NCBI GenBank assembly: GCA_965287045.1
Contig: OZ336885.1
Location: 62,310,001 to 62,374,000, forward strand
Source: Carcharhinus amblyrhynchos
Taxonomy: Eukaryota
DNA: 64,000 nucleotides
Direction of reading: 5' to 3'
Positions 34,215 to 60,329 of this stretch are shown here, piece after piece. Position numbers and translations under genes: made by a program. The notes beneath the pieces were generated by a model. The model was given only the letters and a program-made list of their open reading frames with translations, ran no database searches and was not told the origin of the DNA. Position 1 is the stretch's first letter. Each line of letters starts with the position of its first letter.

Positions 34215-34252
34215 ATACTACACTGATCTTAGCCAAAAGGCCGAGGAGCAAT
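34215..34252 (-). ncRNA. U2 snRNA 5' fragment, second copy
   Basis: Reverse complement ATTGCTCCTCGGCCTTTTGGCTAAGATCAGTGTAGTAT (2 substitutions, 1 deletion vs U2). Confidence 0.9.
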
Positions 34253-35285: not shown

Positions 35286-35357
35286 AACATTCAATGCTAT
35301 GGAATTTATGTCCACAACAGGATGAACATCCGAAATGATGTAACATACTGAGTAATA

Positions 35358-36415: not shown

Positions 36416-36754
36416 TCCAAATGCATTGTGAAATATACTTCGGAATAATACTTCGTACATTTTGTCCATGATTTTCCTGAAATCCATTTCGGGGAGCACC
36501 ATTCATTAGCTCGTTAAATGCAATTCTTGAACAAACCTATCAAATTACCTTGAACAATGTACGTTTGGTGAATCTAGGACGTTTTGTTTCGGTCCTCTTT
36601 CCTGCATCAAGTCCATTTATATTCAATTATTAGGGAGCATATTTAATATACCGACTGTTTTTGATGGCACAATTACAAAGCAATGGCACTGACAGTTATC
36701 CAGATTCAAATATTTATCTGTATTCTCTCTCGATGCAGGTATTCAACCTGCGCT

Positions 36755-36755
<1 letters not shown>

Positions 36756-36830
<75 letters not shown>
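36756..36830. repeat. (TATC)n microsatellite
   Basis: Direct reading. Confidence 0.98.
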
Positions 36831-36831
<1 letters not shown>

Positions 36832-37181
36832 ATCTGTTAACGATGCATTGCATGACATTAGAAGTGCAACTCCGTCAGTGTAGACTTAACATACAACAAA
36901 ATATCAGCTATATCCGTTCAAATGCCAGTTATTTTTAAAACTGTCCTGTAAGCATTGTCTGTTTTATAAAAACATGATTACTTGCATTAAAATGTCTATA
37001 TCTTGTATTCAAATGGCTTTGTTCTGCAGAAAGCGACAAACTCTGAGAAATGAAAATACGTCGCCATTCTTTTTTGCTAGTGAAACCAATCATTAATTTG
37101 CCATTGTTTCTAGCCATATCGTTGTTGGAAAAAGATGAAGGTATGTTTGCTAACCTTTTCTTAACTGAGTGCGTGTAACAG

Positions 37182-37501
37182 GAAATATTTATGTTTCAAA
37201 ATCCAACCACAGAATCACAAGGGCCAAAACGCCAATATTATGGTCGAAATACATTCTTTGCAAACCCCAATGGAACAACACCATTCTTGCCTCTTTATTT
37301 CCTTCTGACTCAAGTCCAATTTCTTTCTGCATCATTTTTCTGTTCCAATTACAGCATCTCCTGAAACATCCCCTGTGTGAAAATGTTCCTCCACATATAC
37401 TCAAATGAGTTCTTGAAAATTAATTTATATGTGCCGCTAACGACCTCACTGGGTTGCCTACCGAAATGATTGATGAAAAACGGTACCAAGTCAGCTTTAT
37501 G
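37182..37501 (+). pseudogene. Possible decayed V(J)-like exon
   Basis: Begins GNIYVSKS; ends FICAAND...KNGTK with a G|gtaagg donor; preceded by leader-like LPLFLAISLLEKDE G|gtatgt (to 37140). Confidence 0.3.
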
Positions 37502-37729
37502 GTAAGGTGTCACGATTTTACAAAAGTCCAAAAACTTCCACTACGAAGAAGAGCGCATAATCCGCAACTGCGTGACACTAACCTAGTTCTACTAAAAGAA
37601 ACGGATCACTTAAACCATTATCAAGATCATTTTATAAACGCCCTACTTTACGATACCTAGATATAATTGAGCACTACTGGATATTTTATTTGATTAATTT
37701 ATTAGTGCCAAAAGGAGGCTAACAGTAGC

Positions 37730-38338
37730 ATTGAAAATGTGTTCATGGGACAATCCCCAGTCGCCACACTTGGACGCATGTTTGCGTACGCTTTGTGAGC
37801 ATTTGGCGTTGGCAGTTTTCCGAACGTTCACAACTGTCGGAACGTGGGAGGACATCAGAGCATCTGGAGGAAATCCACGCATGAAATCGGAAAATGTGCA
37901 GACTCCGCCCAGTGACCCAATCCGGAAATCGAACTCGGAGGCATGAGCGCTGTGACGCAACTGTGTAATGACTGTGCCGTCGTGCTGCTTGCCTAGCTAT
38001 ACGTTTAGAAGGGATTGTTTCAAGTACTTTACTTTTTTGTAGGTTATTCTTCTATCTGAATGGGCAACGGATTTCCGTGACGTGGTGCCGTGTTTACCTC
38101 TCACCACAGACTTTGGAAGACAAGCAGAATGCATTCATTCTTTCACGTTATGGGGTTATACATCAACAAGTGTCTGCCAGTATTTGCCTGCGCGGCAGAT
38201 CCGGGACTCAATTTGTATGACAGTGGACTTTTTCTTTTTCAAAACTGCAGTGTAAAGATCGGAAGCTGAATAAAGATACATAGCTTGCAATGGGGTTGCA
38301 ACCGGGCCAGGTACAGCCACGCGCGCCCATCTCACAAG
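37730..38338 (+). pseudogene. NKp30/NCR3-like germline-joined VJ Ig exon, split by a SINE and frameshifted
   Basis: VFMGQSP (to 37759), then the SINE, then one frame AIRLEGIVSSTLLFC-(14 aa)-W in SVTWCR (Cys 38038, Trp 38083), followed by QIRD/LNLYDSGLF..CSVKIG and GVATGPGT. Order and spacing match a V domain with a J-like G strand. Confidence 0.7.
37760..37990 (-). mobile_element. Degraded HE1-like SINE inserted in V exon
   Basis: GTGGGAGGACATCAGAGCATCTGGAGGAAATCCACGCA...CAGACTCC..CCAGTGACCCAA..CGGAAATCGAAC motifs. Confidence 0.75.
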
Positions 38339-38495
38339 GTCGAACAAACACGCACACACCCACACGCATATTGAGGCCTGAACTTCATGGCAACAATCTT
38401 AACAGAAGTTTACCGAAATCATAAATATGCATGGCAATCCAGGCCCAGGCCCAGCAAACATGATTCAAGTGGCAATATCAAATTGTGTCTTTCAG

Positions 38496-39072
38496 AACTC
38501 AAGACTTTGAGGCGAAGTCTCGAAGAAACAGGTGAGGAAATTAGTCGACTCAAATTTCCAGTGCGTTGCTGATTTACTTCTCCGGGACATATAATTGTGT
38601 ATTTTTCAATTTGCTAAAGGTAGTCAAATAGACATTCCGATGGTCTCGTCGATTAAATGAAACGAAATGTTGCATGCCCATAATAGACAGCAAACAGTAG
38701 TTGAATGATCATTTATCGGCTTATTAATCGGGTGATAGGACGCGATGTTTACTGAGACACCGACTGTTTTTAAGTGTTTTACTATGTCCTAATGATTTAT
38801 TGTAGAGCAAAAGCTGATCCAAAGTCAGAAAGGTAAGTTAACATAACTACACATTATGTCGTTCTGTTATTTGGCAGTTGAATTAATTATGATTCTCTGG
38901 TAGCCGCGTTGCCACAATTCATATGTTTATTTGTTTTAATTTTCTGTACGTTTCAGAGCTGCTTGCGAGATGTAAACCCGACAGTGAGTAAATATATAAA
39001 TATATCAACAAAATATCATGCTTCGCTCGGCGGTGTGCGAATGGTAATATGATGCTCTGTTTATCAGATTAA
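38496..39072 (+). other. Micro-exon cassette A: 38496-38531 (36 nt), 38806-38832 (27), 38957-38983 (27), terminal 39068-39072
   Basis: AG acceptors with GT donors (gtgagg, gtaagt, gtgagt), all phase 1; the spliced frame is open: ELKTLRRSLEETEQKLIQSQKELLARCKPDN*. Confidence 0.75.
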
Positions 39073-39169
39073 GTCTGTGCCAGACCATTCTCCTGCTTCA
39101 TTTCCTGCTCACTAAATGTGTCCTTCTGCAAACAAGTGCGCGCCTGCAACATGACAGCAGTCACCAGTC

Positions 39170-39527
39170 TTTTTTAATGTTATGTTATGTTCGCGCAATC
39201 CCAGACTGACTCTGAGAAATCCATTGATGGGAGCTTCGAATTTACATGGCCATTCCATTATCTCTATGTGGATTTCAATGTAATGAAAACATGCATAGTT
39301 TTTTTTTTAATCCCCTTCGTGAAGAATGGCCGTTTTAAATGCATTTCAGATGGCAAAACGCGCAAAGGCATGCCACATGGATTTAAATACAGGAAGAGAG
39401 ATACATAGTTTAAAATGGTAGTACGACCGAAACTGACGGCCCCAAAGCATCACGGCAATTAATACATGAACATATATTGATCGGTCGAGGAAGGCGAACG
39501 TTCATAATGTTCACCGTTTTAGAAATG
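39170..39527 (+). pseudogene. Possible decayed V(J)-like exon
   Basis: AQSQTDSEKSIDGSFEFTWPF start and IGRGRRTFIMFTVLE end, followed by gtaagg. Confidence 0.3.
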
Positions 39528-40891
39528 TAAGGAACGACCATCGAATTACCATTACTTCAATTATCAACTGATTCGCAAAAACATTAAAGCTGTTCATCTG
39601 GACAATTAATATTACGACATTCTCCACAAGATTGTTTGGATGATGGCTCAAGCAGGGTGCAGGCGCATCCAATAGCGGCTACGCTATCCCCATTCTGCAT
39701 GCGCTTTGCTAGATATTTACCGAAATTTGACGCACGCTTGAGTACATGATAATACATCGGAAAACAGGCCAAAAGCGGAAGAGTAAACCGGGCTGTCTGT
39801 GAAAGGAAATCGAACAGATTTTTATCGTAATTATAATCGTGACATTTCATCCAGTGAACATTGCAGATTGGCATTGCCCTGGTGGATTTCTCCCGGATCA
39901 ATACATTTAAGCATCAAAGTAATCCGAATCATCAGTGAGGTCGGGAATGTGGTGCTGCTGATCATTTACCATAGTTTCTGTACGGTTGACCCGTATTAAG
40001 AAGGTCTATTTTGCTTTTCAATATAGTCATTGGTACTCCACATGATGTGTAGGTCATGAAAGTAAGGGCCCGGGTTTGGAGAAATCCTACAATGGTTAAA
40101 AGAAACGGTTTCTTTGGGCACTTCATGGCATGGATAGGTCAGAGAGGGACTTTTGGCATCCAACAATCTTCTACATGACATGGGAAGTTCGGAAACGGTA
40201 CAGAGTTTGTAGCTGAAACGCAAGTTACATTTTACCGAAATGCGATCACAACGCTCTTGCTAGGGTATTTTTTTCAGAATACGCGCATTTGGATTCCGTG
40301 GAGAAGTAAGAGTGGATTTAATGATCATTGGTACTGATATGCACCGTCAATGTGATTGCAGGCGAATGGTTCAGAGAATCACAAGCAGGTAAACATATAA
40401 AACAAAAATCGGGTTCAGTCGTTTTTGCCAGCATGCGTTATCAATTGTTTAAATAATTCAGAACATCTAATGGCTACGCAAAGACAGACCAATTTTAGAT
40501 CAACGTCCTTTGCCTTTTAGTGAAATGTTTCTCTCCTTGTCAAAGATGTTTCAAGTAAGCGTTTAAGCCTAACAAAAATGTTTACAGATAAGCATGCAAG
40601 TAAAACGGCAAGAGCTGAGACGATGCACACACGCAAAAAAAGAATCGTGCGAACGAAAGGTAGAAGCAGAAAATAGGTTTGTCAACGGAACTGACTGACT
40701 TTTTTATTTTCATTTTCTGTTTGAAAATCAAATATGGTATACGTACTGCACATGTGTCGCTCGGTTGCCTTTGCGATTTCATAAACACGTATCCGAAAGA
40801 TCATCCGCATGTAATTGGTGATAAAATGCTTAAAGTTTGTTTCATCTTCAATGGCGTCTGGATGAGCAACATGGCTTTAACATGGTTTCAG

Positions 40892-41195
40892 TGAAATTTT
40901 AGCAGCGAGAAAAGATTAAGGTTACGAGAGATATGCATTTCGAGGAAAGTTATTAAATGGAAGAAGCCGTTAAGTTGTGTGCCAAGATCAATTTTACTTA
41001 CAAGTCCAGAAGGGATGGTTTGTACCTACTTGCTAATGCCAGGCACTATATTTTTTTGAATTATTGTTACAAAAAACTAGAGCAAGTAGTTGGAAAATCG
41101 AAGGCAGTAAACAACGTGATCGAGGATACCTTTAAAACATTAGGGGAAATAAAACATGCTGATGGAAGGGGAACAGAACGATAGAAAATTATTTG
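40892..41195 (+). pseudogene. Decayed V(J)-like exon
   Basis: tttcag| acceptor; NGRSR*VVC...KGWF...RASSWKIEGSKQRDRGY in one frame and HADGRGTE in another; leader-like TDFFIFIFCLKIKY G|gtatac upstream (~40680-40736). Confidence 0.45.
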
Positions 41196-42449
41196 AACTT
41201 GGAACGGAAAGGCTCGATACTTGGCAGCTAAGAGAAAGATAACTTTCATCGTATCCTGAGCGCATTTTCGGTTATCAAACAATCGTCGGGGGGTCGTGGG
41301 AGTGGGATTTTTAGCAGATATTCATGAAATTTAGGCACGTTGTTCCTGATGCACTGGAGAATTACATTTGCATGCGCTGAATGGTAAAATTATATTTCCA
41401 CAAAAAAATGGAAATGGACAAATGTAGAGATGCAGTCCATCCTTGTTATGGGAAAGAAAATACGTTGGCTGTCTTTGCATCAGGGTATTTTATTTCCGAG
41501 ACACGCATTCTGTGGTCCACTGAAACAGGACACTAGTAAATATTTTCGACGATTTTTAGAAAATCAATAAAAAGGTGACTGTTTTAATGATCCAAAGAAT
41601 GTACAATGTTGTATGAAAGCCTATGAATGCGGCTGATGCGCTTCCTGTATGATCGTGAGAATAACTCAATTATTAATCAAACGATAATTTCATTTGCACA
41701 GCAGAACAGCGTACGTTTTTTTTTCAAATATTTACCGATGAAGCCTTTGGATGAAGCAATTCATGTACCTTGCCAGGAGATTATCGCAGATATTTTAATA
41801 ATACCAACGATTATTATCACTTTAAGTTTGTTTTTGTTTTTGTAATCACTTTAATCATAATTTAAGACGTTTTGTTATATTCATTTTGGCGTAAGACATG
41901 TGTGGAACAAATACTGATACGTTTCCTTTTCGTTGTCGTATCCTAAATTGTCTCCTCTCTTCCTCTTTATCCCTGTCTACCATTCTCTCTCAATCTACTT
42001 TTCTCCCTGTCCTTTTTTTCGCAAATTGATAAATGGAATAGCTAGGAATATTAAACTAGAGCCAGCACTGTCGTTACGAAAGCAAATCAATGCGTCTACT
42101 TACTGTAATGACGAAGGAAATTTAGGATTTCAGATACGACTCTCAACAACTTTAACAGATGCACCATTGAAAGCATTATTTCTGAATGTATTAGAGTTTG
42201 CTGTGGTTCCTGGGCTGCCCAGCACCGCAATGAAAAAATATTTTTAAAAAGGTCATCAATATAGCCCAATACATCACACAAACCATCCTCCGATTCACAG
42301 ACTCTCTCCGCACTTCCTACTGCCTGGGCAAAACGTTCAGCACAATTAAGAACCCCGCACGTTCCGGAAAGAAGAGGTGATTCTCCCAAAAGTGCTGAAT
42401 TGGTGCGAAAAATGTTCTAGATCACGACTATTTTCTCAGTTTAACTTCA

Positions 42450-45400
42450 CGCTTGAATCTGCCCAGTCTCTCCACTGCAAAAGTCATAATCTTGAATATC
42501 ATTAAAATCCGGTGAGGGAGGGAAGGTGGGCAGACGATTCGCGCCAAAGAGCCAAAAATTGGCAGGATGAGCAGGAATCCTTGTATGCATGCTTTACTGG
42601 GAGATCGTTGAAAACACCTCCCCGCATTCAGATCACTGCCATTCAACCTCTACATATATAACTTGCCTCATCCCTTGTCCACACAACAGGAAAACAGACA
42701 TTGCCTTCGTCATCGCTAGCCCACACAAATCCACAAGGCATCGCTGGCCTCATCGTTGGCCCCCACAGCCTCCCGACAGGCATCATTGGCTTTATTGCTG
42801 ACCCCATCCCCGCATCCCCCGCCCACTCACAGACATTGCTGACCTCATCTCTGCCCCCCACAAACCCCCTAAAAACATCGCTGGCCTTTTTGTTGAACCC
42901 ACAACGCCACCCCCGCCCCTGCAGCCATCGGTGGCCTCATTATGTCACACCCAATTTGCCTCCCCAAACATACAGATGTGTCTGCCTCCTCACCTCATGC
43001 CTCCCCGAATCCGAACAATGTAGATACCCGATCCCCCCATCCCTTGAACATACTGCCCTCACTGCTGCCCTACGTGTGTTGACACGCACAACCACAGTTT
43101 GTGATCATTCCCTCTCTTCAATGGGGTTCTTGAGTATTGCACCCCACTGGGCACAGCAGCTTATCGATTCGAAGCCCTGAGTATTGCTCGCCATGCACTG
43201 CAATATGTTAATGCTTGCTATCCACCTTATGTTCCACAGGAAAATAACATCCAGAACGCACGGGAAATGTCACAGATTAGAGGTCGCCTGCCTTACCAGC
43301 GGCAACAAACCAGCATGGAAAAGTGTGCGATTCAACTGGCAGGGCGTGCTCGAATAATCAACGATAGCCAAGTCGGCGTCCAGCAAGCAAGTGAGCAGAA
43401 GCGCATCCTCATCCAAGGGCCTCCTCTCAATAAGTGTGATGCTGCATTGAATGCCATGCCTCCCTCCCGCTAATCTGCGATTTTTTTTTAACAGCCCTAG
43501 GCGCAAAGGAATCTAGCCCTTTGGATGTTGCCTGAGCCCCTGCTGTTCTGGAGCAAACTGCCAACAACAGCTCGGATCAAGCCTTGGAAGGAAGCACTGA
43601 GGAATCCTCCGAGGACAGCACCACTGAAGCGTCACCAGCATGTGCCATACAATCCACCAATGCAGAGACAATCACCATGGTGGGGATCTTTAGTTTTGAG
43701 ACTTCTGGGTTATGAACTGATGAGCATATCACAGATTTCAATTCACATCGGGTGGAAGCGGACTCATCCGAAGGCTCGGGAACATGGAGGTCTGCCAGAG
43801 CCCAGGAGACAGCTATCCCTAAGCAAGCTGCTGGGCGTCTGTGTTTATTCCTCCCAAGGTTGGTGGAGATGCATCAGGAAACCCGAGGATTTGGGGAAGG
43901 GCTGTCAGCAATCATAATGCGAATGAAAGGCTGTGTTGTGGAGTCAAACAGAGCACTGGTGCAGGAGGTGGTGCCAGAAAAAGTGTGAGATTCAGGCAAA
44001 AACTGCAAGGGTGGTGGCCGTAGTGAAAAGTCTAGCTCAGGATCCTGTCCTCATGGGTGAGAGGCTCCAAGCCATTTTGAGACATATGGGTCACGGGCGA
44101 GTGTGTTTGCAACATCCAAGAGGCACAGCGTTCAATGATGATGGACGTCGATGGAGCATGTGAGAGACACTGCTGGCCTGGGTTGGGACTTTCACTGTCA
44201 TCCTGAAGACACAGCAGGTCGTGACTGTGCGCCTATGCAACTCAGCCCAGGTTTAGATGGGTAGTACTGAACGGCTCCAGGGCCTGTTTCGCTCACAGAA
44301 TGCTGTAGAGGAGGGGATCTGGAACATTGAGGTATGTGCTCATGGCATCATGGAGCAGTCACATCTAGGCCTTCAGCAGAGCTTACAGAGGGCAGAGCTT
44401 TTGGAGCTCAGTCCTACTACCCTGGCACTCCATGGAGTGCCCCTGGGGCCTCTGGACACCTCAAAAGAGGAGGAAGGTCTTGAACCCATGTCGGAATCTT
44501 CTATCCAGGTGATCCCAGAGGTCCCAAGGCATTCCGATTCCCCTCTTCCTCACATCGGGGCATCTCATGGCAAGAGACATGAACAGGGTAGCACCAAAAC
44601 AGTGCCATTCTCAAGTCAGCCGGGGCTTTCCATGTCCCCGCTAACCCAACGGACGTCGGCCAAGGGCATCTCAGGCAATGGGGCGTGCATCACAGCTGGA
44701 CAGCTTCATGTTTGATGTGCAGACTGCATATCACCGAGAAGAAGCAGTAGACAGTACAACGTTAGAAACACGGGTTAAGTAGAGGACACAGGTGAAGGTC
44801 AACAATCGTAAGGGTTTGGATATCATTTTTGATCAGAACATAACTTGTTAATTGCATATGACACATTGAAAAATATGTCTTTGATTCGTTCCCCCAGGCC
44901 CCATCACCCACCGACACTCGACCTCATCCCCCACCCTCACAGCTCACTATCCCTGACTCTCAAACATATAGGTGCTGTCTGTTGGGCCTGGCAAATTGAG
45001 CTGCATGTATTGGAGTCCCTGTCCGACATTCGCCAACATCCACCAGACAACTGGTACGAGTGATACCCTCTCTTAACCAAGCAACATGTGTCTCAAACGT
45101 TACAGTTAGGATGAACCAGAGTCACAGTGTGTATTTGGAGTGCAGGAAGGAGTCAGATTTGAGTTGCGCTAGGGGCAGGATACCCATGTGCAAAACAGTG
45201 TGTCATTGTACAGCCTTCAACCAGTATTTGCTAACGTTGCCAGTCCAAACACATCAATCGGGTCAGCTGTTCTGGGGAGTATGGTGGTGGGATGTCTGAA
45301 GCAGGGAGAGTGTAATGTGGTGATTTTAGGTCTAGTTCTGTTTGGCAGGCGGGCCGGGGGGGCGGGGGGGGGGGGAGGAGGGAGGTGGAATGTCAGTTAC

Positions 45401-48400
45401 ACTTGCTCCTGGATGTGGTGGATCTGTGTTGGCTGCAATCCCCTCATTGCACAGCACCAGCTAGTTGAAGTGGGCTGCAATCAAAGCGTCCCTGGCTGTC
45501 CATTTCTGCCGGACATCTGTCGTTACCGCCTGGCCTGGCACGGCTCGTTATTCATATGGTGGCATATCCATCCCACCCACTCTGCACTCAAACTGTTAGT
45601 TTTCCTCCTGCTCCAGCTGGTCTCCCCACTGCTGGGCGATGTTGTGGAGTGTGTAACAAACCATAATGATGCGTGAACCACGCACAGGGTCATGCTGGTG
45701 AGGCCCCCAGAGTGGTCCAAGAAACGGTACGTCATCTTAGGCAGGTCAATGCACTTCTGAATGATGGAACGGATGACTACAAGGGCCTCATTGTAGCGAG
45801 TCTCTGCCTTTGTCTCGGGTATTCACACAGGCGTCATCAACCTTAGCAGGTAGCCTTTGCTCTCAGTAGCCATCCCTGCAGCCTGAGCTGGTCTTCAAAG
45901 TGCACAGAGATGCCTGACCATCGGTCACAAATCTGTTATCTGGGTGGCGTGCATCGACCTGCATGATTGCTTGATGGTCGTAGATAACTTTGCATTCATG
46001 GAATGGAATTCTTCCTGTTCAAAATTTGCTGCAACTCTCTATGGGAGAGCGGGGGCACAAGACGATGTGTGTTTCATCCACTGCACCTTGCGTATTCAGA
46101 ATCCCAGCAATGGATGCAAAGCTGAGGGCCCGGGCCTCCTGCTATACCTGGCCCATATTGAAATTAATTAACAGCTCTGCCCGGGTACACACAAGGCATC
46201 TGCGACCTGTCGCAAACAACTGTGCATTCGGCCTGGGACCCAAGCCACATCACCTTAGGGTGCCTGGAATTATCCACAGGCAAAGAAATTTAGGGCAGCC
46301 ATCACCTTCTCGTCCACAGGGATCGAGTTGCCCGCCCCTCCCTGAGGTGCCACGTTTGAGAGTACCTCAGAAATGCGTCGCACTGTGGTCTTGGACAGGC
46401 ACAGCCAGTGATGGCACATCTCACCCAAAAGGGCATCAAACGAATTGTGGGGCCTGAACTTGCTTGTGTCGTGGTTCCCCAAGACGACAACTTATTTAAC
46501 CCGATTGAAACAGAGAGTCTGAGTTGTAATCTTCCAAGCAGTAGACTTTATTTTCCAGTACAAGAGAAATAAAGCCGGGAGGTCCGGAACACTCCGCAGA
46601 GCCCTCGGCTTACAGTCTTTTTATGCACATTTCAGCTCCATATCTCAAGATTCTTATCTCGCTTTTACAATGCGACCTCGTTTAGCCACCATTGTTTCTG
46701 TACTGACCCCTTATTTACCTTGCTTGAGATTGGTCACCCATTGTTACATCTCTTTTCCTCTCGAAACCATGGTAGTTACATCCTTTGCCCTTATCTTTAC
46801 GACTCTGCTTGTACAACAACAGTGGTTTAGCTGACTTAGGCCGAATGTGAAGAAAAACATGCTCACTTTATTCTTTCCTGCTTGTTACAATCATATATTA
46901 AGCTGGACAGCTGTATAGTACCCATTGTCTCCCCAAGTGACTGCTGTTTGCATTTGCTAATAAGTAACTGCTATACTGCTTCTCTGGGCCTCCTGCTTTG
47001 ATCACATTTGCTACACTTGATTATATTAGGTTACAAATCAGCTATACTTGATTACCCATCCCAATTCTACTTCAAGGAAGACACTCTAATACTATCCGTG
47101 ATTCCATACTTCATACCCAGTTTAGGTACAATTATTCAGTACAAATTCTCTAAGCACTAACATGCTTACATATTGAGTACAAATTTCCTTACACTTGTCA
47201 ACTGCAACCTCCACCTTCTGTGCACTTTCTTCGGAGGCCGGCTATCGACCTCCCTGCCCTCAGCAGCAACCCCCTGCCCTCCCTACTGTTGGTAGGGGGT
47301 CTACAGAGGGTCTGTTGGTGCCTGCTCCTGCGATGGTTTCTCCACACCCGCTAAATCCTGAGCCACTGCCCCTCTGCCACCAATATGGCCAGCTCCAGAT
47401 CTAGCAAAGTAAAATACATCTGCACAGTGGGGTTTAGAAAAAAAAATAGAATGACTGGGTTATTCTAATCATATGCACAGACCAAGCAGCATCCCAATCC
47501 CTCACTGGGGCCAAAGAAAAAAAGAAAACACTTGAGTAGCTGGAAACACCACGCAATCAATGATAACATGCACACTGCAATTAGGGTTGTGTGGCATTCT
47601 CATCATGACAAATACTGTCAGCGACTATGCAGGTCAGTGTGCAGCCCAGGTCAATGCATACCGTGGAGCCTTTGTTATGTGTGCAACTGCAGCCTCTGTT
47701 ACAGGCATATGTTGCTCATCCACGTTGCAGTGACAAACGGCGAAAGAACACCAGATGAGTGTCAGTGACAGCAGATTCCACTCAGTCCATGTCTCTGCAC
47801 CCTGGACTGAGCAGGAGCTGCTTCATCCGGTTGGATCTCAGCTAGTACATGAAACATTCCTCCCCCATTCTGGAACAGCAGCACACAGCCGAGATCCTGA
47901 GTTCAAACAGGGGGAAGACAGTGCCAGTGCAATGTGGGGGAGGATGAGTGGGAGCTATCGAGGCTGCTTCCCACACTGCGTGACAGCGCTGCCTGGGGGA
48001 GAGGGGGGTGGTGAGCCGGGGCCCATGTGCTGCCTCCAACGCTGCGCTGCAGATGTGCCTGGGGTGGCGGCCGAAACGAAAGCTCTCGAGGCTGCCTCCC
48101 ACACTGAGCTACCCAGCTGCCCACAGAACCGTTGTGGAGGGATGGGGATCGAGGGAGAGGGCGTGGATAGGCGGGATTCTCTGACGAAACTTCACCAAGA
48201 GGGCTGTGAGGAATTTGAAGCCCCCCACCCCCCCCCCCCACCCCCCACAAACACATACCCATCCGTGTTATCACTGCTCGATTGGCCAACACCTCACGGC
48301 TGCAGGAGTAAGGCTATTGTGCATCTCCGGGGCTTGCCTGCAACATTCCACGCACCCCGCTAGAAGCACTTACTTCCTCACGCCAGTGCACTGCTTCTCA

Positions 48401-48683
48401 GCAAGGTTGAGACTTTTAAGTACCGACTCCGATTTGCGCTAAATTTATATCGCGAAAAAGATAGGAGACGTGAACGCGGGAGGAGATTGCCGTGTGGATC
48501 CCTATAATGGCATGTTAACGTATGTAAAGTCATGCGAATCAGTGGCCTGCCTGTTTTTCCGGGCTCCCGGCGGCTCCCTTGTTCCCCATTTGTGAGATGC
48601 AAGTGGGGAAGCTGCAAAATGGCCAGCACGTATATCTCTCGATCCACCAGGAAAGGTGCGGGTTGCGATGAGAGATTCAACCC
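42450..48683. mobile_element. Degraded PIF/Harbinger DNA transposon(s)
   Basis: Minus-strand HARBI1-like transposase remnants (FRPHNSF..., IPVDEKVMAALNFFACG, RFLDHSGG; ~45420-46466). Plus-strand Myb/SANT-partner-like remnants (~43240, ~47880-48060). Weak TIR-like ends GCTTGAATCT / AGATTCAACC. Possibly a mosaic of two elements. Confidence 0.75.
46467..47193 (-). mobile_element. Solo LTR inserted into the Harbinger transposase
   Basis: TGT...ACA termini; 4-bp TSD CTTG (46463-66, 47194-97); minus-strand TATA-like (~46620) and AATAAA (46547-52). Confidence 0.85.
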
Positions 48684-48684
48684 C

Positions 48685-48905
48685 ATATCCTCTTCCACGT
48701 TCTTCCGTCGTAAAAAAAAATATACGAACGTTTGCGGACAGGTACCAAGGAGCTCAAGAAGATTTTGTTCCCTGCTGCCATCAATGGACCCACCTCGAAT
48801 TTAGTTGATCTATCGCTGCACCTTAGCTATGACTGTAACAATGCATTCCCACGTCTCTCCTTTCCTCCTCTATGAATGCATGTGACAATAATAAATCAAA
48901 TCAAA
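48685..48905 (+). mobile_element. Rex1/Babar-like LINE 3' fragment
   Basis: CTTCCGTCG..AAAA.ATAC...GTACCAA..A.CTCAAGAA...TTCCCTGCTGCCATCA; tail shared with 50975-51430. Confidence 0.6.
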
Positions 48906-48989
48906 TTATGGAGGCTAAGTCTAGATTCCACATTTATTAAATGAATGCTAGCCAAGCTAGACTCGCCCTTGAAGGCATTTATAACGAAA

Positions 48990-50830
48990 CAGTTCAATTT
49001 CTTACTTTAGTACCTGCTGTACCAGCATGCTAGATGTATTTTGATTCATGAAGTCACCCACATCCCTTTGCACACGATCACCCCTAACATTCTTCCCATT
49101 AATATAATAAGTTGCTGTCCCCATTTTTTTAATGACAAAATGCATTATCTCACATTTACCCGTATTGAGTTTCATCTGCAACATCTTGGCCCACTCTCTT
49201 AATCAAACGATATCGACTTGTAAGTTTCTTCTTTGCACATTTCAACTTACTGTCCAGCCTAATTTTGTGCATTTGCAGATGTGACTATGGAGTCGTATAT
49301 CCTTGGATTAAATTCATTAATATGGATTACAAAATGCTGGAGGCCAATGACCAATCCCTGTGGCACCCCACGAATTGCTTCTTGCTATACAGAAAAAAAG
49401 ACATTTATCCCAGCTCTCTGTCTTCTTTCCATCAGTAAGTCACTTGACAAGTTATTGAGTTACACCTAATCCATGCGATCTAACCTTGTGAATTAACCTT
49501 TTGTCCAGCTTCTTATCAAATTCATTCTATAAGTCCAGATATATTACATCTGCAGGATCCCCATTATCCAGTTTGTTTGTTACATCTTCAAAGAAATCTA
49601 GCCCATTGTCAAACGTGATGTGGCGACATCAAACCACGCTGATTCTGATGGATCGTGTTTTGAAATTCCAAATAAGAACATAAGAACATAAGAACATAAG
49701 AAATAGGAGCAGGAGTAGGCCATCTGGCCCTTCGAGCCTGCCCCGCCATTCAATAAGATCATGGCTGATCTGTCGTGGCTCAGTTCCACTTTCCCGCCCT
49801 CTCCCCATAACCCTTAATCCCCTCTCTTATCAAAAACCCATCAACCCGCTTCTTAAAAATATTTAGCGAGGCAGCCTCCACCACTTCAACGGGCAGAGAA
49901 TTCCAGAGATTCACCACCCTTTGAGTGAAGAAGTTCCTCCTCAACTCCGTTCTGAACTGCCCCCCCTTTATCTTGAGGCTGTGCCCCCTAGTCCTACTGT
50001 CTTTTTTGAGCGGGAAGAGTCTTTCCACCTCTATCCTATCCATCCCATTCATCATCTTATACGTCTCAATGAGATCTCCCCTCATTCTTCTAAACTCTAA
50101 CGAGTACAAGCCTAGTTTATTCAGCCTCTCCTCATAGCTCAACCCCCTCAACTCCGGTATCAGCCTAGTAAACCTCCTCTGCACTCCCTCCAAGGCCAAA
50201 ATATCCTTGCGCAGGTGCGGCGCCCAAAACTGCACACAGTACTCCAGCTGCGGCCTCACCAATGCCCTATACAGCTGCAGCAAGACCTCCCTACTTTTAT
50301 ATTCAATCCCCCTCGCTATGAAGGCCAGCATCCCATTCGCCTTCCTGACCCCCTGCTGCACCTGCAGGCTGGGTTTTTGCGACTCATGCACAAGGACCCC
50401 GAGGTCCCTCTGCACTGTCGCCTGCTGCAGTTTTTCGCCACGTAAGTAATAGTCCTTCCTACCATTCTTCCTACCAAAGTGGACCACCTCACACTTGCCA
50501 ACATTAAATTCCATTTGCCATTTCCTGGCCCATTCGCCCAGCCTATCTAGATCCTTCTGCAGACTCTCCACACCCTCCGCACAATTTGCCTCCGCACAAA
50601 TCTCCCAATACCGCTTTCTTGGTAATTCGATCTACCATTTTCCCAACAGATGTTACACTAATAGGTCTGCAACTTACCACATTTTGCCACTCTCACTTTT
50701 TGAATAAGGACTTACACTAGCAATTTTCAGTCCATTGGAACCTTTCGTGAACCCAGAGCATTTTGGAATACTATAATCAATGGATCCGCTATCTGCTGCC
50801 ATTCTGAACCGTGTATGGATGGGGATTTGT
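48990..50830 (-). mobile_element. Older CR1 (48990-49670, 50600-50830) with nested young CR1
   Basis: ORF 49002-49184 MKLNTGKCEIMHF...QRDVG; RT sequence resumes after the insertion. Confidence 0.75.
49672..50590 (-). mobile_element. Young 5'-truncated CR1 LINE with uninterrupted 263-aa ORF2 C-terminus
   Basis: ORF 49780-50571 (LQKDLDRL..WQMEFNVGKC..LEYCVQFW..RGHSLK); (AAGAACAT)n tail. Confidence 0.97.
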
Positions 50831-50974
50831 TGCCTTGCATGCACGAGATGGCTCTGCGCTGTCGGGAGTTCTGTTCGGTGGATCTCCAGAACATGCCCCC
50901 GCTTGGATGAGTGGAAGGCTGGTATTTGGATGACTTGTCTGAAGTCATGGCTGTGTATGAGCCGCGAATGAGCT

Positions 50975-51430
50975 TTGAGTCTCACCAACGCTTACAGATG
51001 CATCAAAAACAATCTTTGTGGTTGCATCATTGCTTGATATAGCTCCCGCTTTGCCCAAAGTCGTAAGAAACTGCAGAAGGACGTGGACATAGCCCAATGC
51101 ATTACGCAAACCAGCCTCCCATCCGTTGACTGTGTCTACACTACTCGCTGCCTCAGCAGAGCACCCAACATAATGAGGGAGGTCACACACTCGGAATGTA
51201 TTCTTTTTCACCTTCTTTGGTGGAACAAAATAAAACACAGTCTGAATTCATGTACCAACCAACACAAAATCAGCTTCTTCCCTACTGCCATCAGACTTTT
51301 GATTGGACTGACCTTGCAATAAGTCGACCTTTCTCTACACCTCAGCTATGACTGTAAAGCAGCATTCTGCACTGTGTATTTTCCCTCTCTATGAACGGTA
51401 TGTTTTGTCCCTACAGCGCACAAGATACTA
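50975..51430 (+). mobile_element. Rex1/Babar-like LINE 3' fragment
   Basis: RKKLQK.VDIAQCITQTSLPSVDCVYTTRCL...SFFPTAIRLL. Confidence 0.75.
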
Positions 51431-52599
51431 TATGTTCTAAATCAGACCAAAATTAACAATATTATCTAAATCCCTTTTGGAATGACGTACCAACCATAAC
51501 GGAGTTAACGAACGCACTTGAAAAGTGAGAGGGGAAGAAATTCGGAACATTGCACGGAAGTGCCCAGGTAACAGTCAGTTGTGCAACGTAATAAGCACAT
51601 GAAGGAGCCAGTTGATCGACGAGTAATGTCAGAAGTTGATGCGAATTTTATTGGCATGCCCAATGGGAATGGTGTGTCGTTTCACTTTAGATAAAAAAAA
51701 AATCAAGTGTGGTTTCAATTTTTGTTCTGCCACTTAACTTTATTTTACTCGCTGGATAATCCGACAACTTCACTTTGTCAATGTCCCTATAAGAAGGTAA
51801 CGTTTTATGAGGATAATATGCGTGCCCACACGACTTCCTTTGACTGAGCATGGCAGAGGCTGTTTTTTTTTCCCCAATACTAGCATTGTCAAAATGAGAA
51901 TTAGACTTAATTTCCATTCCTGCTCTGCCGCTATTATGGCTAGTTATTGATGACATGGGGGTCCAGGGGTGATGTAGCTTCAGAAGACGACATCAATGTT
52001 ATGAATAATTGATAACAGGCATGTTATATGTGGACAACCCTATTTCAAGGAGAGCTTCTGGGTGTACATAGAGTCATCGTCCCAGTTCACCATCTGCAGT
52101 GTTGATTATTTGAGATTTGAGTGAACATTACTCCGCAAAAGAAATGTTTCTCTGCTACCACGAAGCATCGTTCAGAAGGTTGAACTTCACAATTTCGACT
52201 GTCTTTATTTTTATTGGCCTGGCTTCAGGAATGGGATCATGTCTGCATTAGAGACCCAGCGAGCTGATCAGGGAGATTCGCCAGATCTGAACGAACTGCC
52301 TTGGTGATGTTATATGGCTACAACGCAGTTTCCAGGAAACACAAAAAAATGTTTTTTTTTAAGTGCAATGTCCAAATATCTGTGAACAGAACTGTGTTGT
52401 AAAAAAAAAGTTCACTTCCTTTGTTGAGGGTGGACAGCACTGAAGCTTTCGACAGTTCATTTGATCGCTCAGCAAAAGCAACCATTTCCCAGAGATCCCT
52501 CCCGAATTAAACAAAAGGATCAATTAAGTTCAGAGTTTCGTTTTCATCCCAATCATTGTATCAGTGAATACTACTTCGCGTAATGATGCCAGTCGACCC

Positions 52600-52880
52600 A
52601 TCCAGTCTGCACCATCCACAATCAGAACCAGTTACTATTCCCGTAATTCAACGTTTTTATTCCAGCTATCGCCCTTCACACGCAGGGTCAATTTAGCATG
52701 GCAATCTACCTAAGCTCCAAATGTTTGCACTGTGGGATGGAACCGGAGCACCCGGTAGAAACCCAATCAGCCACGGGGAAAATCTCCAAGCTCCAGGCAG
52801 AAAGTCAGCCAAGCCGATAATCGAAGCCGGATCCCTAGCCCTGTGATTCAGCAATGCTAACCAAGATGCCACTGTGATGT
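52600..52880 (-). mobile_element. HE1-like SINE
   Basis: CAATTTAGCATGGC.AATCTACCTAA...GGAACCGGAGCACCCGG.AGAAACCCA core. Confidence 0.8.
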
Positions 52881-53311
52881 TCCGTTATGTTAATTTCCAA
52901 CTTAAAATAATCATACTAAATTACGAAAACACAACCTTCAAATCACTTGAAACGAGAAAACCTAAGTTATCCATTACGCATGTCAGGAATACACGACAAT
53001 AATGTGCTGCGCTGCAATTAGATTATCTCTGATTCTGAACGGAAATGAAAAATCATGCAAAGACAACTATTTTGTGTCTGCTCGTCTCAAGCGATTTCCG
53101 AACACGGTTAGCAAGATCATTCCCGTGCTGTATAGATCGCATTAAATAAGGACGGTGTTCATGGGAAAGCAGCAGAGCTATGGAAGTTAAAGTGAGTAGA
53201 ACAGTAGCTTTTTCTTTAAAACATGCAACGAGATAAATGAAAAAATCCTAATCGTGTCATTTGCATATGTGCAATTCCGTATGGTGGATCGCGAATTAAA
53301 GTGTATCCCCG

Positions 53312-53443
53312 NNNNNNNNNNNNNNNNNNNNNNNNNNNNNNNNNNNNNNNNNNNNNNNNNNNNNNNNNNNNNNNNNNNNNNNNNNNNNNNNNNNNNNNNN
53401 NNNNNNNNNNNNNNNNNNNNNNNNNNNNNNNNNNNNNNNNNNN
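53312..53443. other. Assembly gap (132 N)
   Basis: Direct reading. Confidence 1.
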
Positions 53444-53869
53444 CCCACAAATGGACGAATTCTTTAGATTGTGTTGGAGGAAAATGATCTAGCTGTCTTT
53501 CATCCTGTAGAAGTCAACAACTTCTGAAAAAAAAGGAGAATGTTATTCTGATGAGAAATCCTGTGTAAATGCTCTTCAATCGCTTCGTGATACCACGTTT
53601 GACAAAGGAAGATCAATATTAGGTGTAATGTGCAACTAAAATGATAATGCAGGATGATGTCCAGCATCATTTGCGTGCAAGTGGGAATGGAATTGTGGAA
53701 AGTAAAGCAGTTACTTTATTTAATCTCTATCCAGCTGCATCGAAGTACTGTGCAAGCCAGAAGGACATTGCACAAAATCAGACGGGGAACTGAACTCGAT
53801 TAATCATGACATAATAATATCTAACATAATAATGTAATTTACTGATGTTATTCGAAACCAAATGTCTAG

Positions 53870-55438
53870 ATGAAGAGCCGCGCTCCAAAAACGAGCAACG
53901 GGTAGCAACGATAAATAATTGTGCATTGCTAAATAAGTAAAATTGAAATAATTCCAAACGAGTATAACTATGGCAAAGAATTCGAACCCTTTTCGGGAGC
54001 GATACAAATTAACACAATTTGTACAACAAATATTTGCTGCCACAAATCTACTCTCCTCATGTTGATAGGCTGGAAAATAAAACATTGTATTTCCTTTTTG
54101 ACCAAGATGCAACTAGCATTTGGCATGAGCGAATGATACGTAAAATTATTATAGATGTTAGCCAGTGGACGGACATATGGGGAGATGATGTCGTAGTTTC
54201 ATTACCAGTCTCTAAAAAAAAAACATAACCCGCCATTTATGTTACTGGAACATGCAATTTAATCCGAAGAATCAAGTGCCGTATTTCAAAACAGGCGTAT
54301 TAATAATTCAAATTAGTTATTAAAATATAGAAGTGAAATTGTGGGTTTTAACCTATAGCAATGACATCGAAACAAAAAGGAGTTCTGTCAAAAAAAAACT
54401 TTAAGGTAGGACATCACAGTTGTCTTGTCTGGAAAACATGTGAAAGCATGCATGCAAGAAATTTCTAACAAACTGCTCAATTGTGGGATTTGAGGAGTTT
54501 GGACAAATGGTGTCTTGCTGTGACCCGCAGATTCAAGAGCATTTCAAGCAAATGGCATCATGCTATAATTGGCCTGAGCCTGCCGATATCTATTGTGGGG
54601 TTCCAAAAACATGTCAGACACGAAGGTTGTTGAACTGATTCTGAATCACGAGCATTTCACTTATTCAGGAACAGTTCTCAAAGATTAATATTTCAGTAAT
54701 TGGAAAGTTGTTATTTAAGGACAAATGTCATGGGGGATTTAGCGAACTGACTGTTCATTGCCTCAGCTTAAATCTCAAAAAATGCTCGATTTCATTCATC
54801 AGGATTTTTCTTTCGATGTCTTCGGAAATGACAAAACGGTGGACCATAATTCGATTTGATTTTTCCAAGGAAACCAACATTGAGGAAACAAACAGAACCT
54901 TTTCAGGATGTTAAAGAAACAAAAAAAAAACGCTTTGGAGGAAAACGTTTTTAAATTGTTTGAAATTAAATACAAATATTGGATAAGATGATAAGAAAAA
55001 AAATCTCATACAAAATGTGGGTACCTGGTGCTGTGAATATTAAACGATATTGTCTAAACATTGCCTAACACAGAGAAACAAACAAGTGTATCAGGTGAAT
55101 TGCATCATAGAGTTCATAGGGCAACGACTGAAAAGTAACTGCACTGAGAGCTGTTGGTTCTGCAGTCACAGACTGTCCATTTTAGCTTTTAATTGACGGG
55201 AAGTGGAACATAAATCATGTGTCATAACTACTTTATAAAATTAGCTGGGATTTAAACAGTGAGAAGGGTGCAACAACATGAGGAGTTATGTTAATTGCTC
55301 GGGTACAGGCACGATGTACACCAGCTATGATTCAATATAACATTTTTGAAAATGCTTCTCTGAGCGAATGGGCTCATGCAAGTTTCTTTGCCGACAGATG
55401 GGTGTCTTTGGAACTACTAATGTAAAGTTGCCTAGTGG
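53870..55438 (+). pseudogene. Up to three consecutive decayed V(J)-like exons (~53870-54200, ~54531-54860, ~55074-55438)
   Basis: EEPRS...TINNC...LWQR...NDT*NYYRC; ADIYC...SELTV...VFGND; VYQ..IIEFIGQRLKSNC...MLIARVQ...GVFGTT. Motifs are scattered over frames with many stops. Confidence 0.3.
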
Positions 55439-56019
55439 TTGCAAAAGAGAAAAAATAAAATACGTGCGAACATTCCTTCCTTTTATTTGAGGTATGGGAT
55501 GAATTTAATCATACTGACATTGAGACATAGGACTTTCCAGAGATTAAACATGGAGCTCTATGCAATGTTCTCCCCACCCCTTACAAAGGATATGGCGAGT
55601 TTGTGTGTCCTCGAAGAACGAGATCAACGCTTTTTAATGACATCATTATTTCATTAGTTGTTTGTTAAACGAGAAATTGTGAGAGATGCTATCCATAAAT
55701 TCCATGCCACTAAGAAAAATGGAAAACAAAAAGTTCTAACTGAATCAAATTACATTTCGAATCGGGTATCCACGCTGAATACTTCCCTGAAATGGTTAAG
55801 TTGAAGAAACATGAAAGTCTCACTAAAAACAGTTTAAATATTTTGGTATCAGAGGAACAAACTAGAATTATGAATATGTGTGGTAACCCTCAGAGTCATC
55901 TTGTCAGCTATGATCTCTGCAGTTTTTTTAATAATGTGAGGAAATTTGGAATTGGGCCAGGCAATAATGTGGTTCTCACTTAGAAGGCCAGTTATACTTT
56001 TCTGAAGTATTTGTGCAAA

Positions 56020-58495
56020 GAAAGGATGTGAAAGTGATTGGGGTGATTGGGGAGTTAAACTGCTGGTTAAGGGGATATGTCAGGCGTACTGCGGGGGAGT
56101 GGGGCGGGGAGCTCCTCGGAGGGTTCACACAGCAAGACAATTGGGAAGAGATCAAGAATGGAAAAGATATAGTAACAATGTTAGGTTTTACTGGAGGTCA
56201 TCCAAATCCCAGCGGCAGATTGTGGAACAGATTTGTTGACAGATTTGGCATATTGCAAAAGTGACAGGGTTGCTGTGTTGGGAAATTTTAATTTCCGCTA
56301 TCTTGTCTTTGACTCACTTATTGCTTGGAGCGTGGATGAGGCAGAGCTTGGAAGCAACATCCCGGATGGCTTCCTGAAACGGTATGTAGATGGTCCAAGA
56401 AGGGAAGTGGCCATACTGGACTTGGTGTTCGGAAATGTTAGTTCGCCAAATTTTTTGCAGAGGAGCAGTTCGGGAACTGTGACCACAATTCAGTGAGCCT
56501 TGATGTACTGATGGATAAAGATAATTGTAGTCCTGACGTTAAAGTTTTAAATTGGGGGACGGCTAATTACAAAAAAATATTAGGCAGAAACTGAATAATG
56601 TAGTTTGGGGGCAGATGTTTGAGGGAAAATCAATATCTGTGAGAGGCTTTCAACTGCCTGCAAATATGACGGACAGGTATGCCAAGGTTTGCGAACCTTG
56701 GGTAACGAGAGATATTGTGAGCCTAGTCAAAGGGAAAAAAAATAAAGCATTTGTCAAAGCTGGGAGGCTGGGGATGCACAAAACAAGCTTGAAATACAAG
56801 GAAAGTAGAAAGAAAGTTAACATGGAGTAAGCAGGCCTGATAAAGGGTCATGAAACAGTATTGGCCCACAGGATTAAGGAAAATGCCAAGGCTCTTTATA
56901 CATATATAACGAACCAGAAGGTAGCCAGGCAGATGTTTGGCGCACTGAAGGACAAAGGAGGGGATCTATGCGTGAAGCCAGAGATAATAGGCAAAGTAGT
57001 AAATGAGTTTGTAATGGCTGTATTTACCAAAGAGAAGGACTAAGTGGATGACAAGTCTGGGAAAGGATGTGTAGATAGTTTGAGTCATGTGAGATCAAAA
57101 AGGAGGAGGGGGTTCTTGGGAAACATTAAGAAAGACAACTCCCCAGCGCCCAATGGGATACACGCGCAATTAATGAGAGAGGCAAGGACCAAAATTGGTG
57201 GGGCCTTGAGAGCGGTCTTTATACTGTCAGTGGCTACAGGGAAGGCCCCAGAAGTTGGACAGTAGCCAATGTGACTCTTTTGTTTAAGAAGGGCAGCAAG
57301 ACTAATCCAGGTAATTACAGGCCGGTGAGGGAAATTATTTGAGCGAACTCTTCGAGATAGGATTTATTCCCACTTTGAAACAAATGGGCGTATTAGTGAG
57401 AGGCATCTTGCTTTTGTGAAGGGGAGATCCTGTCTCACGAACATGACCGAGTTTTTCGAGGAAGTGCCAAAGATGATTGATGAGGTCAGGACAATTGATG
57501 TTATCTCCATGGACTTCAGTAAGACTTTTGCCATGTTCCCTCATGCCAGGTGAAGTCGCTTGGTATATCGATTGGTTAGTATATTTGTGGACGAGACAAA
57601 GATTGCTGGATCTGCGCGTAGTGATGACGACTATCAGAGGGTATAGCAGAATAGAGATAAGTTGGAGACTTGGGTGGAGAGATAGCGGATGGAGTTTAAT
57701 CGGGACAAGTGTGAGGTAATGCATTTTGGAAAGACTAATATTGATGAGAAAAAAAATACAGTAAATGGCAGAGCCCTGACGAGTATTGATTTGCAAAGGG
57801 ATCTGGGTGTACTGGTACACAGGCCACTGCAAGTGACAATGCAGGTGGATAATGTAGTCAAGAAGGCATACAGCATGCTTGTCTTCATTGAACGAGGTAT
57901 GGAGGTTAAACTTTGGCAAATCATGTTGACGATTGAGAGAAAATTAATTGGTTCGTACCTAGAAAATAGTGCTCAATTCTGTTCGCCACACTATCAGAAG
58001 ACTGTGAAGGCCTTGGAGAGGATACAGAAGAGATTTGCCAGGATGTTGCCTGATATGGAGGACCTTAAATATGAGGAAAAGTTTGAGAAACTTGTTTTGT
58101 TTTCACTAAACCAATGGAGGTTGAGGGACAACCTGATAGAAGTCGACAAGATTATGAAAGGCACGCACAGTGTGGATAGTCAGAAGCTTTTCCTAGGGTG
58201 GGAGTGTCAATTACTAGGGGCATAGGTTTTAGGGGCGAGGGGCATTTTTTAAAGGAGATGTGCGAGGCAGATTCTTTCGAAAAGGGTAGTGGGCGCCTGG
58301 AAGAACTTGCGGAAGGAAGTAGTGGAAGTGGATACGGTAGTGACGTTTAAGTGGCCTGCTGACAAGTACAAGAATCGGATGGGAATAGAGGGATATGAAC
58401 CTTGAAGGGTAGGGGTTTAGTCGGGCAGGATGGTCGGTGCATGCTTGGAGGGGCGAAGGGCGTGTTCCTGTAATGTAATGCGATTTGTTCTTTGA
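56020..58495 (+). mobile_element. Degraded CR1 LINE (endonuclease + RT)
   Basis: VLGNFN, AILDLVF, IKENAKALYTYI, SPAPNGIH, MEFNRDKCEVMHFG remnants; CR1 tail. Confidence 0.92.
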
Positions 58496-58724
58496 TTCAA
58501 GGAGCCTTCTTAATCACATTCTTTTAATTGTCCTTCACATGCCACTCATTGGTCCAGGCAGATGGCACGCAGGACCAATTGACATAATTCAAATCGCTAA
58601 TCAACCCTTTTCTTTAGTGAGCAGAACAAAACATTTATTAATTTAAAATAATTTCAAGAACCACAATGTGCATGCATCTCTTTTTCTGGATTAGAATTAA
58701 GTGAATGTATTTTGCATATTTCAG

Positions 58725-60077
58725 AACTGGACAGCGTGAAAAGAGCGCTGAAAGATAAAGGTCAGATAACATTTGCACTTATCCAACGGACGCTGTATAT
58801 GGATTTGTTGTTTACGACTTAGAACATTTCAATCTGATCAAATGAAGAGAATATTAAACATTAACAGAATTTAGTTGGACTTTCTAGCTTGGTGCATCAC
58901 TCGATGATAAATGATGATTATTTAGTACGGTTACATCTGCAGGACTTTATCGAAATAATATTGCTCTCTTAGTGAATTATTGTTCGAGCTGAAAGACACT
59001 TTAGTGATATTTCGCATCAAATGTGTTTTAACGGGTCCAAGCCAAATGGGAGCCGACACATTCATTTGTATGGAGACAGTAGCATCCGGCAGTTGCAGCA
59101 TCTCAATCCAATAGGCAGTTACATTTTTTGCAGTATAACTGTATACCTGAAAGAATAAAACACACTATTTTTGGTCACATTAATGTTCAAATTCAGACTG
59201 AATAGTTAACATTTGATTTATTTCAAAATCATTTCTACAAACAATTATGATCTGATACCTGTGTCAAATAAGTGCCACTTCCTGATCTTCAACCTCGTCT
59301 GCTAAATTGCTATAGTTATGTACATATCACTGTTTTTTTTAATTTTGAAAAATGATTCTAATCTAAGCTCAGTTTCTGGTAGTTTTCTTATAATCGTATA
59401 AATCCAAAACGAGCCTCATTTTACCACTATTTTTTTCACAGAGGAGAAATTAACTCAATGCAAGAAAGGTAGATCACTGAAAACATTTCTTTTGTTGTTG
59501 TTGTTCAGAATGTATTTTTCGTCTCGTGTTGTTTCGTATTATTGCTTACTTTACTCGAACAATATTAACTTCAATATTTTACATGATGCATTTTTTTTTA
59601 GAGTTGGAAGCAATGTGTAGATGGAATGGTGAATTTAGTCAAATAATATACTCGACTTGACAAATTTAAAAACAACAACAACAAGAATATTATCCCCCAG
59701 TTTCCACTGTCGTGACTTACAGTGTTCAGGATTAACTCAGTCTTGTTTTCTTTTAATAATTTAAGTTGTTTTAACACAATTTCCCTTGCGTCTCACAGGA
59801 CAAACTTCATTTGAATGTTCTGCAGGTTAGCGCAATGATAAATTAAGTCACGCCTTGAACAAACATAATCAATTGTTGTGATGAAATGTTGCTGCAAAAA
59901 TAACTCACAATCTTGTTATATAAACGTCAATTATACCAACAGGTCGTATGAAATATGTGTTTCGCCTTTCAATTTACATTATAATATTAGTTTCATCTGA
60001 TTTAAGAAGAGTAAAATGCACATCTTGCTAATTTCAAATCAGACACAACACAAAATACAAAACATCGTGTGGACTGA
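58725..60077 (+). other. Micro-exon cassette B: 58725-58760 (36 nt), 59442-59468 (27), 59602-59628 (27), 59799-59825 (27), possible terminal 60043-60077
   Basis: Pyrimidine-AG / G|GT boundaries, all phase 1; the spliced frame is open: ELDSVKRALKDKEEKLTQCKKELEAMCRWNGQTSFECSADTTQNTKHRVD*; aligns exon-for-exon with cassette A. Confidence 0.75.
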
Positions 60078-60329
60078 CACGCCAGCAAAGTATCACACAT
60101 TGCAACGACATCACAACTGGTTCATTAGTTAAGCAGAACATTTCCGCGGACCACATTCAACTTAGCTAATTTGCTTTTCAATTACAATTCAATCATTGTG
60201 TTTAAACAAAAAAAAACAGATAAAGCCATTGGAATCGTTTCGGAGGAGAAATTGAAATTTTTGGATATCATCAGAGCAGCGAAGTTTCCTGCCATCATTC
60301 TCGATGGATGGGCACGAGATTCCTTGGCA

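Follow-up and report, generated by a model that had tools for sequence, protein, structure and literature searches.

Here we describe a 64,000-nucleotide (nt) window of the Carcharhinus amblyrhynchos genome (contig OZ336885.1, positions 62,310,001 to 62,374,000 of the forward strand), the whole of which (1..64000) lies inside a plus-strand array of micro-exons extending from -94,721 to +734,793; positions with a minus or plus sign, here and below, are relative to the window start. About 146 phase-1 micro-exons of this array are predicted, and likely, to splice into one gene of about 850 kb. This giant gene probably encodes a parallel coiled coil, a segmented rod presenting a pair of B30.2 domains. 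The analysis covered 1.25 Mb continuously (-400 to +850 kb), plus sampled loci farther out.

An earlier sequence-only reading of the window had called six exons in two cassettes, each of 36, 27 and 27 nt, and had taken the cassettes for the tails of two paralogous genes. All six exons were found where they had been called, with AG and GT ends, no stops and the peptides read from them. Splice scans added six further exons of the same array, and the window holds the following features:

821..26381, plus strand: two of four tandem units of about 16 kb, 83-86% alike, each with a 42/45-nt and/or a 36-nt exon
4363..4404, plus strand: 42-nt phase-1 micro-exon, a copy of the 45-nt module, within a 16-kb tandem unit
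12673..12708, plus strand: 36-nt phase-1 micro-exon (xLEKFNEEIKSA), with copies at -4673 and -22361
20359..20403, plus strand: 45-nt phase-1 micro-exon (xINLMGQTGLAKQHS)
34713..34739, plus strand: 27-nt phase-1 micro-exon (xIDRLLKPS), of weaker score
37114..37140, plus strand: 27-nt phase-1 micro-exon (xISLLEKDE)
38496..38531, plus strand: cassette A exon 1, 36 nt, exon 17 of the 146-exon model
38806..38832, plus strand: cassette A exon 2, 27 nt
38957..38983, plus strand: cassette A exon 3, 27 nt, with a core Cys
58725..58760, plus strand: cassette B exon 1, 36 nt
59442..59468, plus strand: cassette B exon 2, 27 nt
59602..59628, plus strand: cassette B exon 3, 27 nt, with a core Cys, exon 22 of the 146-exon model
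59799..59825, plus strand: 27-nt micro-exon (xQTSFECSA), overlooked by the sequence-only reading

In all 12 exons called in the window the phase-1 frame is open and at least one other frame contains a stop. The paired exons of the two cassettes have 20/36, 17/27 and 13/27 bases in common (48-63%), and their introns are alike in about 58% of the columns of a gappy global alignment. Self-BLAST of the window gave zero similarity between cassette A and cassette B. Right after cassette A, a 28-nt segment with a good acceptor and donor (40,278-40,305) could be a frame-shifted copy of a missing fourth exon, or chance.

An untrained splice matrix was run over 559 kb around the window on the sense and antisense strands. 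It returned 35 sense versus 11 antisense candidates of 27 nt and 31 versus 7 of 36 nt; candidates of other lengths between 15 and 60 nt averaged 8.8 with a maximum of 19, which makes the 27/36-nt classes 3-4 times commoner than other lengths and than the antisense strand. A stop interrupts the phase-1 frame in 3 of the 66 sense 27/36-nt candidates, against 39 and 27 of the 66 in the other two frames and 7 of 18 among the antisense candidates. The same bias was seen in a second stretch of 160 kb (1 of 17, versus 10 and 6 in the other frames). The six micro-exons called first are a genuine feature, with 27/36-nt exons far above chance. A splice model trained on the same DNA gave, at a score of 19 over 875 kb, 126 sense matches and one antisense match, the antisense count serving as control. 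The joined model consists of 146 exons totalling 4,416 nt (129 scanned, 17 added by hand and one dropped), of which 88 are 27 nt long, 45 are 36 nt long and 13 have other lengths of 18-45 nt; the introns have a median of 3.2 kb and reach 26 kb. The six exons of the two cassettes are numbers 17-22 of this model, and two sister arrays have modules much like them close to their 5' ends. Because of these two positions we regard them as N-terminal modules of the rod and not as tails, and the cassettes turn out to be repeated modules of one same-strand array instead of two paralogous genes.

About 23 kb past the last micro-exon, at +758,075 to +758,595 (C16:63,068,075-63,068,595), lies a B30.2/SPRY exon with a phase-1 acceptor in frame and a Pfam SPRY match of E 1.3e-15. 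We infer that the micro-exon array would be spliced to this exon. It lies about 700 kb downstream of the two cassettes, contrary to the sequence-only reading that no B30.2 exon follows them. Its best match of solved structure is TRIM21 (E 5e-20); BTN3A1 is matched nearly as well (E 4e-19). When 150 of the 336 B30.2 candidates in the genome were scored, the six best all fell within 60.45-66.44 Mb of this chromosome. Each closes, at the 3' end, a set of micro-exons that share its strand, with one B30.2 per array. Six related arrays ending in a B30.2 are thus spread over 6 Mb of this chromosome, each with an open B30.2 exon, and sampled micro-exons range from -1.75 to +3.7 Mb of the window. In a minus-strand sister array, between -254 kb and -210 kb, we observed a block of 13 candidate single-heptad phase-1 exons of 21 nt, a size known from the exons of chicken BG. 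Elsewhere in the genome, other B30.2 exons form very large clusters (C9:96-112 Mb, C41, C53 and C73); the best B30.2 match off this chromosome, at C9:106,383,667, may be a further family member. By their motifs, the flanking exons at -2.05 Mb resemble a Na/K-type ATPase alpha subunit, and those at +4.69 Mb a guanylate-binding protein.

Catshark (Scyliorhinus) XP_038668997, whose B30.2 is 76% identical, links that domain to counterparts of the last three micro-exons and is the orthologue of the gene's end; the model is a fragment of 358 amino acids that begins within retroelement-like sequence and includes no more than the last exons. Among further family members, recovered by a protein search over 1.84 billion representatives, most are named as coming from catshark, skate, electric ray, basking shark, epaulette shark and elephant shark, and two proteins are unnamed. 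In a midpoint-rooted tree of 34 rows, made from the B30.2 domain only, one clade (100/100) unites the six local domains with eight database proteins and stands apart from TRIM-like and butyrophilin-like rows. The named members of this clade are all cartilaginous-fish proteins, and the window's gene is sister to the catshark model. In the elephant shark (Callorhinchus), XP_042192744 is a single chain of 1,697 amino acids with a rod of about 1,450 residues and a B30.2 of the same clade. RefSeq isoforms usually rest on RNA-seq, and the isoforms or model versions of three relatives differ mainly by blocks of 9 and 12 residues (also 6, 7, 10 and 18). No full-length shark orthologue was found among proteins of 933-2,970 amino acids, where 631 candidates gave two matches, both from Callorhinchus; a search at short lengths gave one match among 36. 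The relatives are annotated as 'TRIM39-like', 'TRIM58', 'TRIM69-like' or 'zinc-binding protein A33-like'. The RefSeq names of XP_042192744 ('nuclear-pore anchor-like') and XP_038668997 ('TRIM39-like') mirror weak similarity, not function, the models being automatic and partly wrong. No description of the gene family was found in the literature searched, largely that outside subscription journals; PMC11788884 presents immunoglobulin (Ig) plus SPRY as a jawed-vertebrate domain pairing and, in the available portion of its text, does not mention a rod-plus-B30.2 family.

The joined translation is 1,471 residues long and stop-free, with 35% Glu+Lys. Its hydrophobic periodicity peaks at 3.5 residues (0.68 versus 0.20 after shuffling), and 27+36 nt correspond to 21 residues, that is three heptads. 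Cysteines occupy coil-core positions, with a hydrophobic residue at -3 in 35/44 and at +4 in 30/44 (background 0.20), and are often spaced by 21 or 30 residues; in the elephant-shark rod the corresponding counts are 13/20 and 16/20. N-glycosylation sequons occur at chance level (6 versus 4.7). Phase-1 micro-exons, a coiled-coil product, a family of cartilaginous fishes and a likeness to the heptad exons of butyrophilins and BG proteins, all part of the sequence-only reading, were borne out by these results.

The gene product would be a segmented coiled-coil rod of about 1,470 residues, forming a parallel dimer with a pair of C-terminal B30.2 (PRY-SPRY) domains at its tip. Because the exons are symmetric and 27+36 nt encode three heptads, exons could be duplicated, lost or skipped without breaking the frame, which would change the length of the rod. 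At the 0.15 nm per residue of coiled-coil geometry, the rod could act as a length-adjustable spacer of about 220 nm presenting the B30.2 domains to a partner, which by analogy with the B30.2 domains of TRIM proteins and butyrophilins would most likely be one of host defence. The core Cys residues, every 21 or 30 residues, could cross-link both chains, and their regularity would suit a fibre that is disulfide-linked and, hypothetically, exported. Tentatively, and with a clearly smaller chance of being right in all its parts than the rod itself, one may picture an ancient cartilaginous-fish family of six giant genes, filling 6 Mb of one chromosome, that would encode exported, disulfide-stitched coiled-coil fibres of up to about 220 nm with a B30.2 pair at the tip, no Ig, RING or B-box domain, and a length tuned by birth, death and skipping of more than 100 exons of 9 or 12 codons.

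Several observations weigh against the single-gene rod model. Neither the start codon nor the first exon of the window's gene was found in the searches of the head region. The joined rod matches the Callorhinchus rod with 51.6 bits, while shuffling the exon order gives up to 53.5, and the match of the catshark tail (30.8 bits) is likewise inside its shuffle range (maximum 33.5); since the rod match is at shuffle level, it is composition, Cys pattern and block sizes, and not alignment, that speak for orthology of the rods. The rod would be discontinuous in its N-terminal part because several exons there contain Gly or Pro. From 67 candidate duplicate pairs we retained 24, two of them doubtful, using each exon once; they gave a proportion of non-synonymous differences (pN) of 0.160, a proportion of synonymous differences (pS) of 0.235 and a ratio of non-synonymous to synonymous rates (dN/dS) of 0.64 (Fisher p 0.04). 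The exons are not more conserved than their flanks (0.828 versus 0.835; 11/24 pairs), and some copies are decayed, with the donor lost at -11778 and in-frame stops at -49166 and +425868. Amino-acid constraint is weak. Purifying selection, which the sequence-only reading had proposed for the tail, is weak at the level of sequence; selection would seem to bear less on sequence than on frame, length and heptad pattern.

The array grows through segmental duplication, with gain of exons. The four units of about 16 kb, 83-86% identical, occupy the beginning of the window and the DNA before it, and all carry exon copies; between +390 and +620 kb there are longer repeats.

Among alternatives to one giant gene, the one that fares best, though we judge it unlikely, is that of several smaller genes or short isoforms, in which each cassette belongs to its own transcript, stopping at a terminal exon close by, and the B30.2 is joined by the last few exons alone, as the sequence-only reading would have it. 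Most database relatives are indeed short models of 175-460 amino acids, exon-poor gaps of up to 26 kb interrupt the array, and stop-ended open frames follow the cassettes at 39350 and 60220. As terminal exons, however, the two frames are unsupported: the acceptor at 60220 is A-rich and its open reading frame (ORF) has no Pfam match. Against separate genes, no repeated head or terminal exon was found among the cassettes in the matches listed, each array has one B30.2, and the Callorhinchus model is one chain.

Somewhat less likely again is that the array is the cytoplasmic tail of a butyrophilin/BG-type membrane protein, its signal, Ig and transmembrane exons lying upstream but too diverged, too short or displaced by inversion. 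In its favour, butyrophilins carry heptad repeats and then a B30.2, and BG tails comprise 13-36 small exons (PMC4046983). The local B30.2 matches BTN3A1 nearly as well as TRIM21, and one sister array holds the block of 21-nt exons. The search for such a head, and for the membership of the Ig superfamily that the sequence-only reading had proposed, gave nothing convincing. Ig families matched 0/72 ORFs of the window, 0/97 ORFs (at least 72 amino acids) in the roughly 38 kb between two divergent arrays and 0/6 database relatives scanned; neither did RING or B-box give a Pfam match among the 97 ORFs or in the six relatives. No convincing Ig, RING or B-box motif was found in the 1.25 Mb, in 41 sampled loci or in two other head regions; over the 1.25 Mb the scan gave five short IgC matches of chance type, besides a single pattern within retroelement-like sequence. 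Over 864 kb an exon scan detected no phase-1 exon of Ig or transmembrane type, and no hydrophobic one of 51-399 nt with strong splice sites; the database family members screened have no 19-residue hydrophobic stretch above 1.6. Genome-wide there are 1,793 V-set candidates, and none of the best 150 is located on this chromosome, a weak result as only the best were scored. An Ig head displaced by inversion may exist.

No signal peptide was found for the window's gene. A signal-like exon at -116155, which heads the neighbouring minus-strand array and has a strong phase-1 donor, was rejected as evidence because it could simply be a pyrimidine tract with AG|GT at its end. The signal-peptide candidates of the sister genes were discarded, being as common antisense (in the head region of the fourth gene, 5 rows sense versus 6 antisense), as were the hydrophobic starts of three database models, which end where an acceptor would fall and may be intron read-through. 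A first comparison of four sister genes for a common head exon was swamped by retroelements; after masking, it yielded only an inverted repeat near -102 kb. The arms of this short repeat, at -102,627 and -101,915, lie midway between the divergent arrays, and each terminates in a donor-like site on the strand of that arm. No repeated large exons were seen among the self-comparison matches listed.

That a formerly functional array is now largely a pseudogene with drifting exons agrees with the dN/dS of 0.64, the equal identity of exons and flanks and the stop-bearing and donor-less copies, but is the least probable of the three, given in-frame stops in only 3/66 untrained candidates, six open B30.2 exons and 76% B30.2 identity with the catshark.

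The surrounding sequence holds many mobile elements. On the minus strand at 26,400-30,070 lies a decayed stretch whose motifs resemble those of a long terminal repeat (LTR) retroelement; a copy of it at -172 kb is 69% alike over 3.7 kb. Remnants of reverse transcriptase of a long interspersed nuclear element (LINE), a very common local family, were found at 49,660-50,630 (minus strand), 35,355-35,686, 56,000-58,450 (plus strand) and 60,430-62,150. A GC-richer block at 43,100-48,400 has similar pieces at +375 to +413 kb, and some of its own pieces seem, from a motif, to resemble a Harbinger-type transposon. Long retrovirus-like open frames lie in or between arrays at -373 to -364, +342 to +351, -311 to -304 and +780 kb, some copies being 90-97% alike. 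A single sequencing run was rejected as evidence of expression: it covers introns at a depth of 5-9 with 2-4% differences, the pattern expected of DNA from another individual or a close relative. Its absence of coverage at 58.9-59.5 kb proves nothing. One contig of this run joins 52,718 and 55,264, which suggests a 2.5-kb intronic insertion or deletion difference.

If spliced as modelled, the single giant gene would represent an extremely exon-fragmented vertebrate design, with about 146 exons, on average 30 nt long, spread across 850 kb. The design would recur six times on this chromosome, and its relatives range from chimaeras to sharks and rays. Current annotation breaks up or mislabels the family, as the catshark fragment illustrates. 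If true, a long rod plus B30.2 without Ig or RING would be a third architecture beside butyrophilins and TRIMs, would bear on the origin of the heptad tails of butyrophilins and BG, and would offer a natural system for mass micro-exon splicing and coiled-coil length tuning.

Butyrophilins too have small phase-1 heptad exons. Like the shark gene, butyrophilins (BTN/BTNL) have heptad repeats followed by a C-terminal B30.2 (PMC4046983), the domain in which the local exon matches BTN3A1. The shark array differs in having about 146 exons instead of a few, in the lack of any Ig or transmembrane exon in the motif and exon scans, and in a B30.2 that belongs to a separate cartilaginous-fish clade. Compared with chicken BG, the shark exons are mostly of 27 and 36 nt, encode three heptads per pair, are 4-11 times as many and end in a B30.2, which BG is not known to have. 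Both the chicken BG zipper protein and the predicted rod are long coiled coils made from many tiny exons in variable number (in BG, 13-36 exons of 21 or 24 nt), and BG differs in having an Ig-V ectodomain and one heptad per exon (PMC4046983). TRIM proteins with a B30.2 (TRIM21, TRIM39, TRIM58) likewise place a coiled coil before it. Unlike them, the shark locus and its relatives show no RING or B-box motif within the ranges scanned, and the shark coil is encoded by micro-exons and would be about ten times longer than that of TRIMs. Vespryns (ohanin) have a B30.2-like domain and occur outside cells, in venom, but carry only a short N-terminal extension and no long rod (PMC4566206), whereas a rod of about 1,470 residues is predicted before the shark B30.2. 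Close counterparts are XP_042192744 and XP_038668997, which have in common with the window's gene the same B30.2 clade, a rod with core Cys and blocks of 9 and 12 residues.

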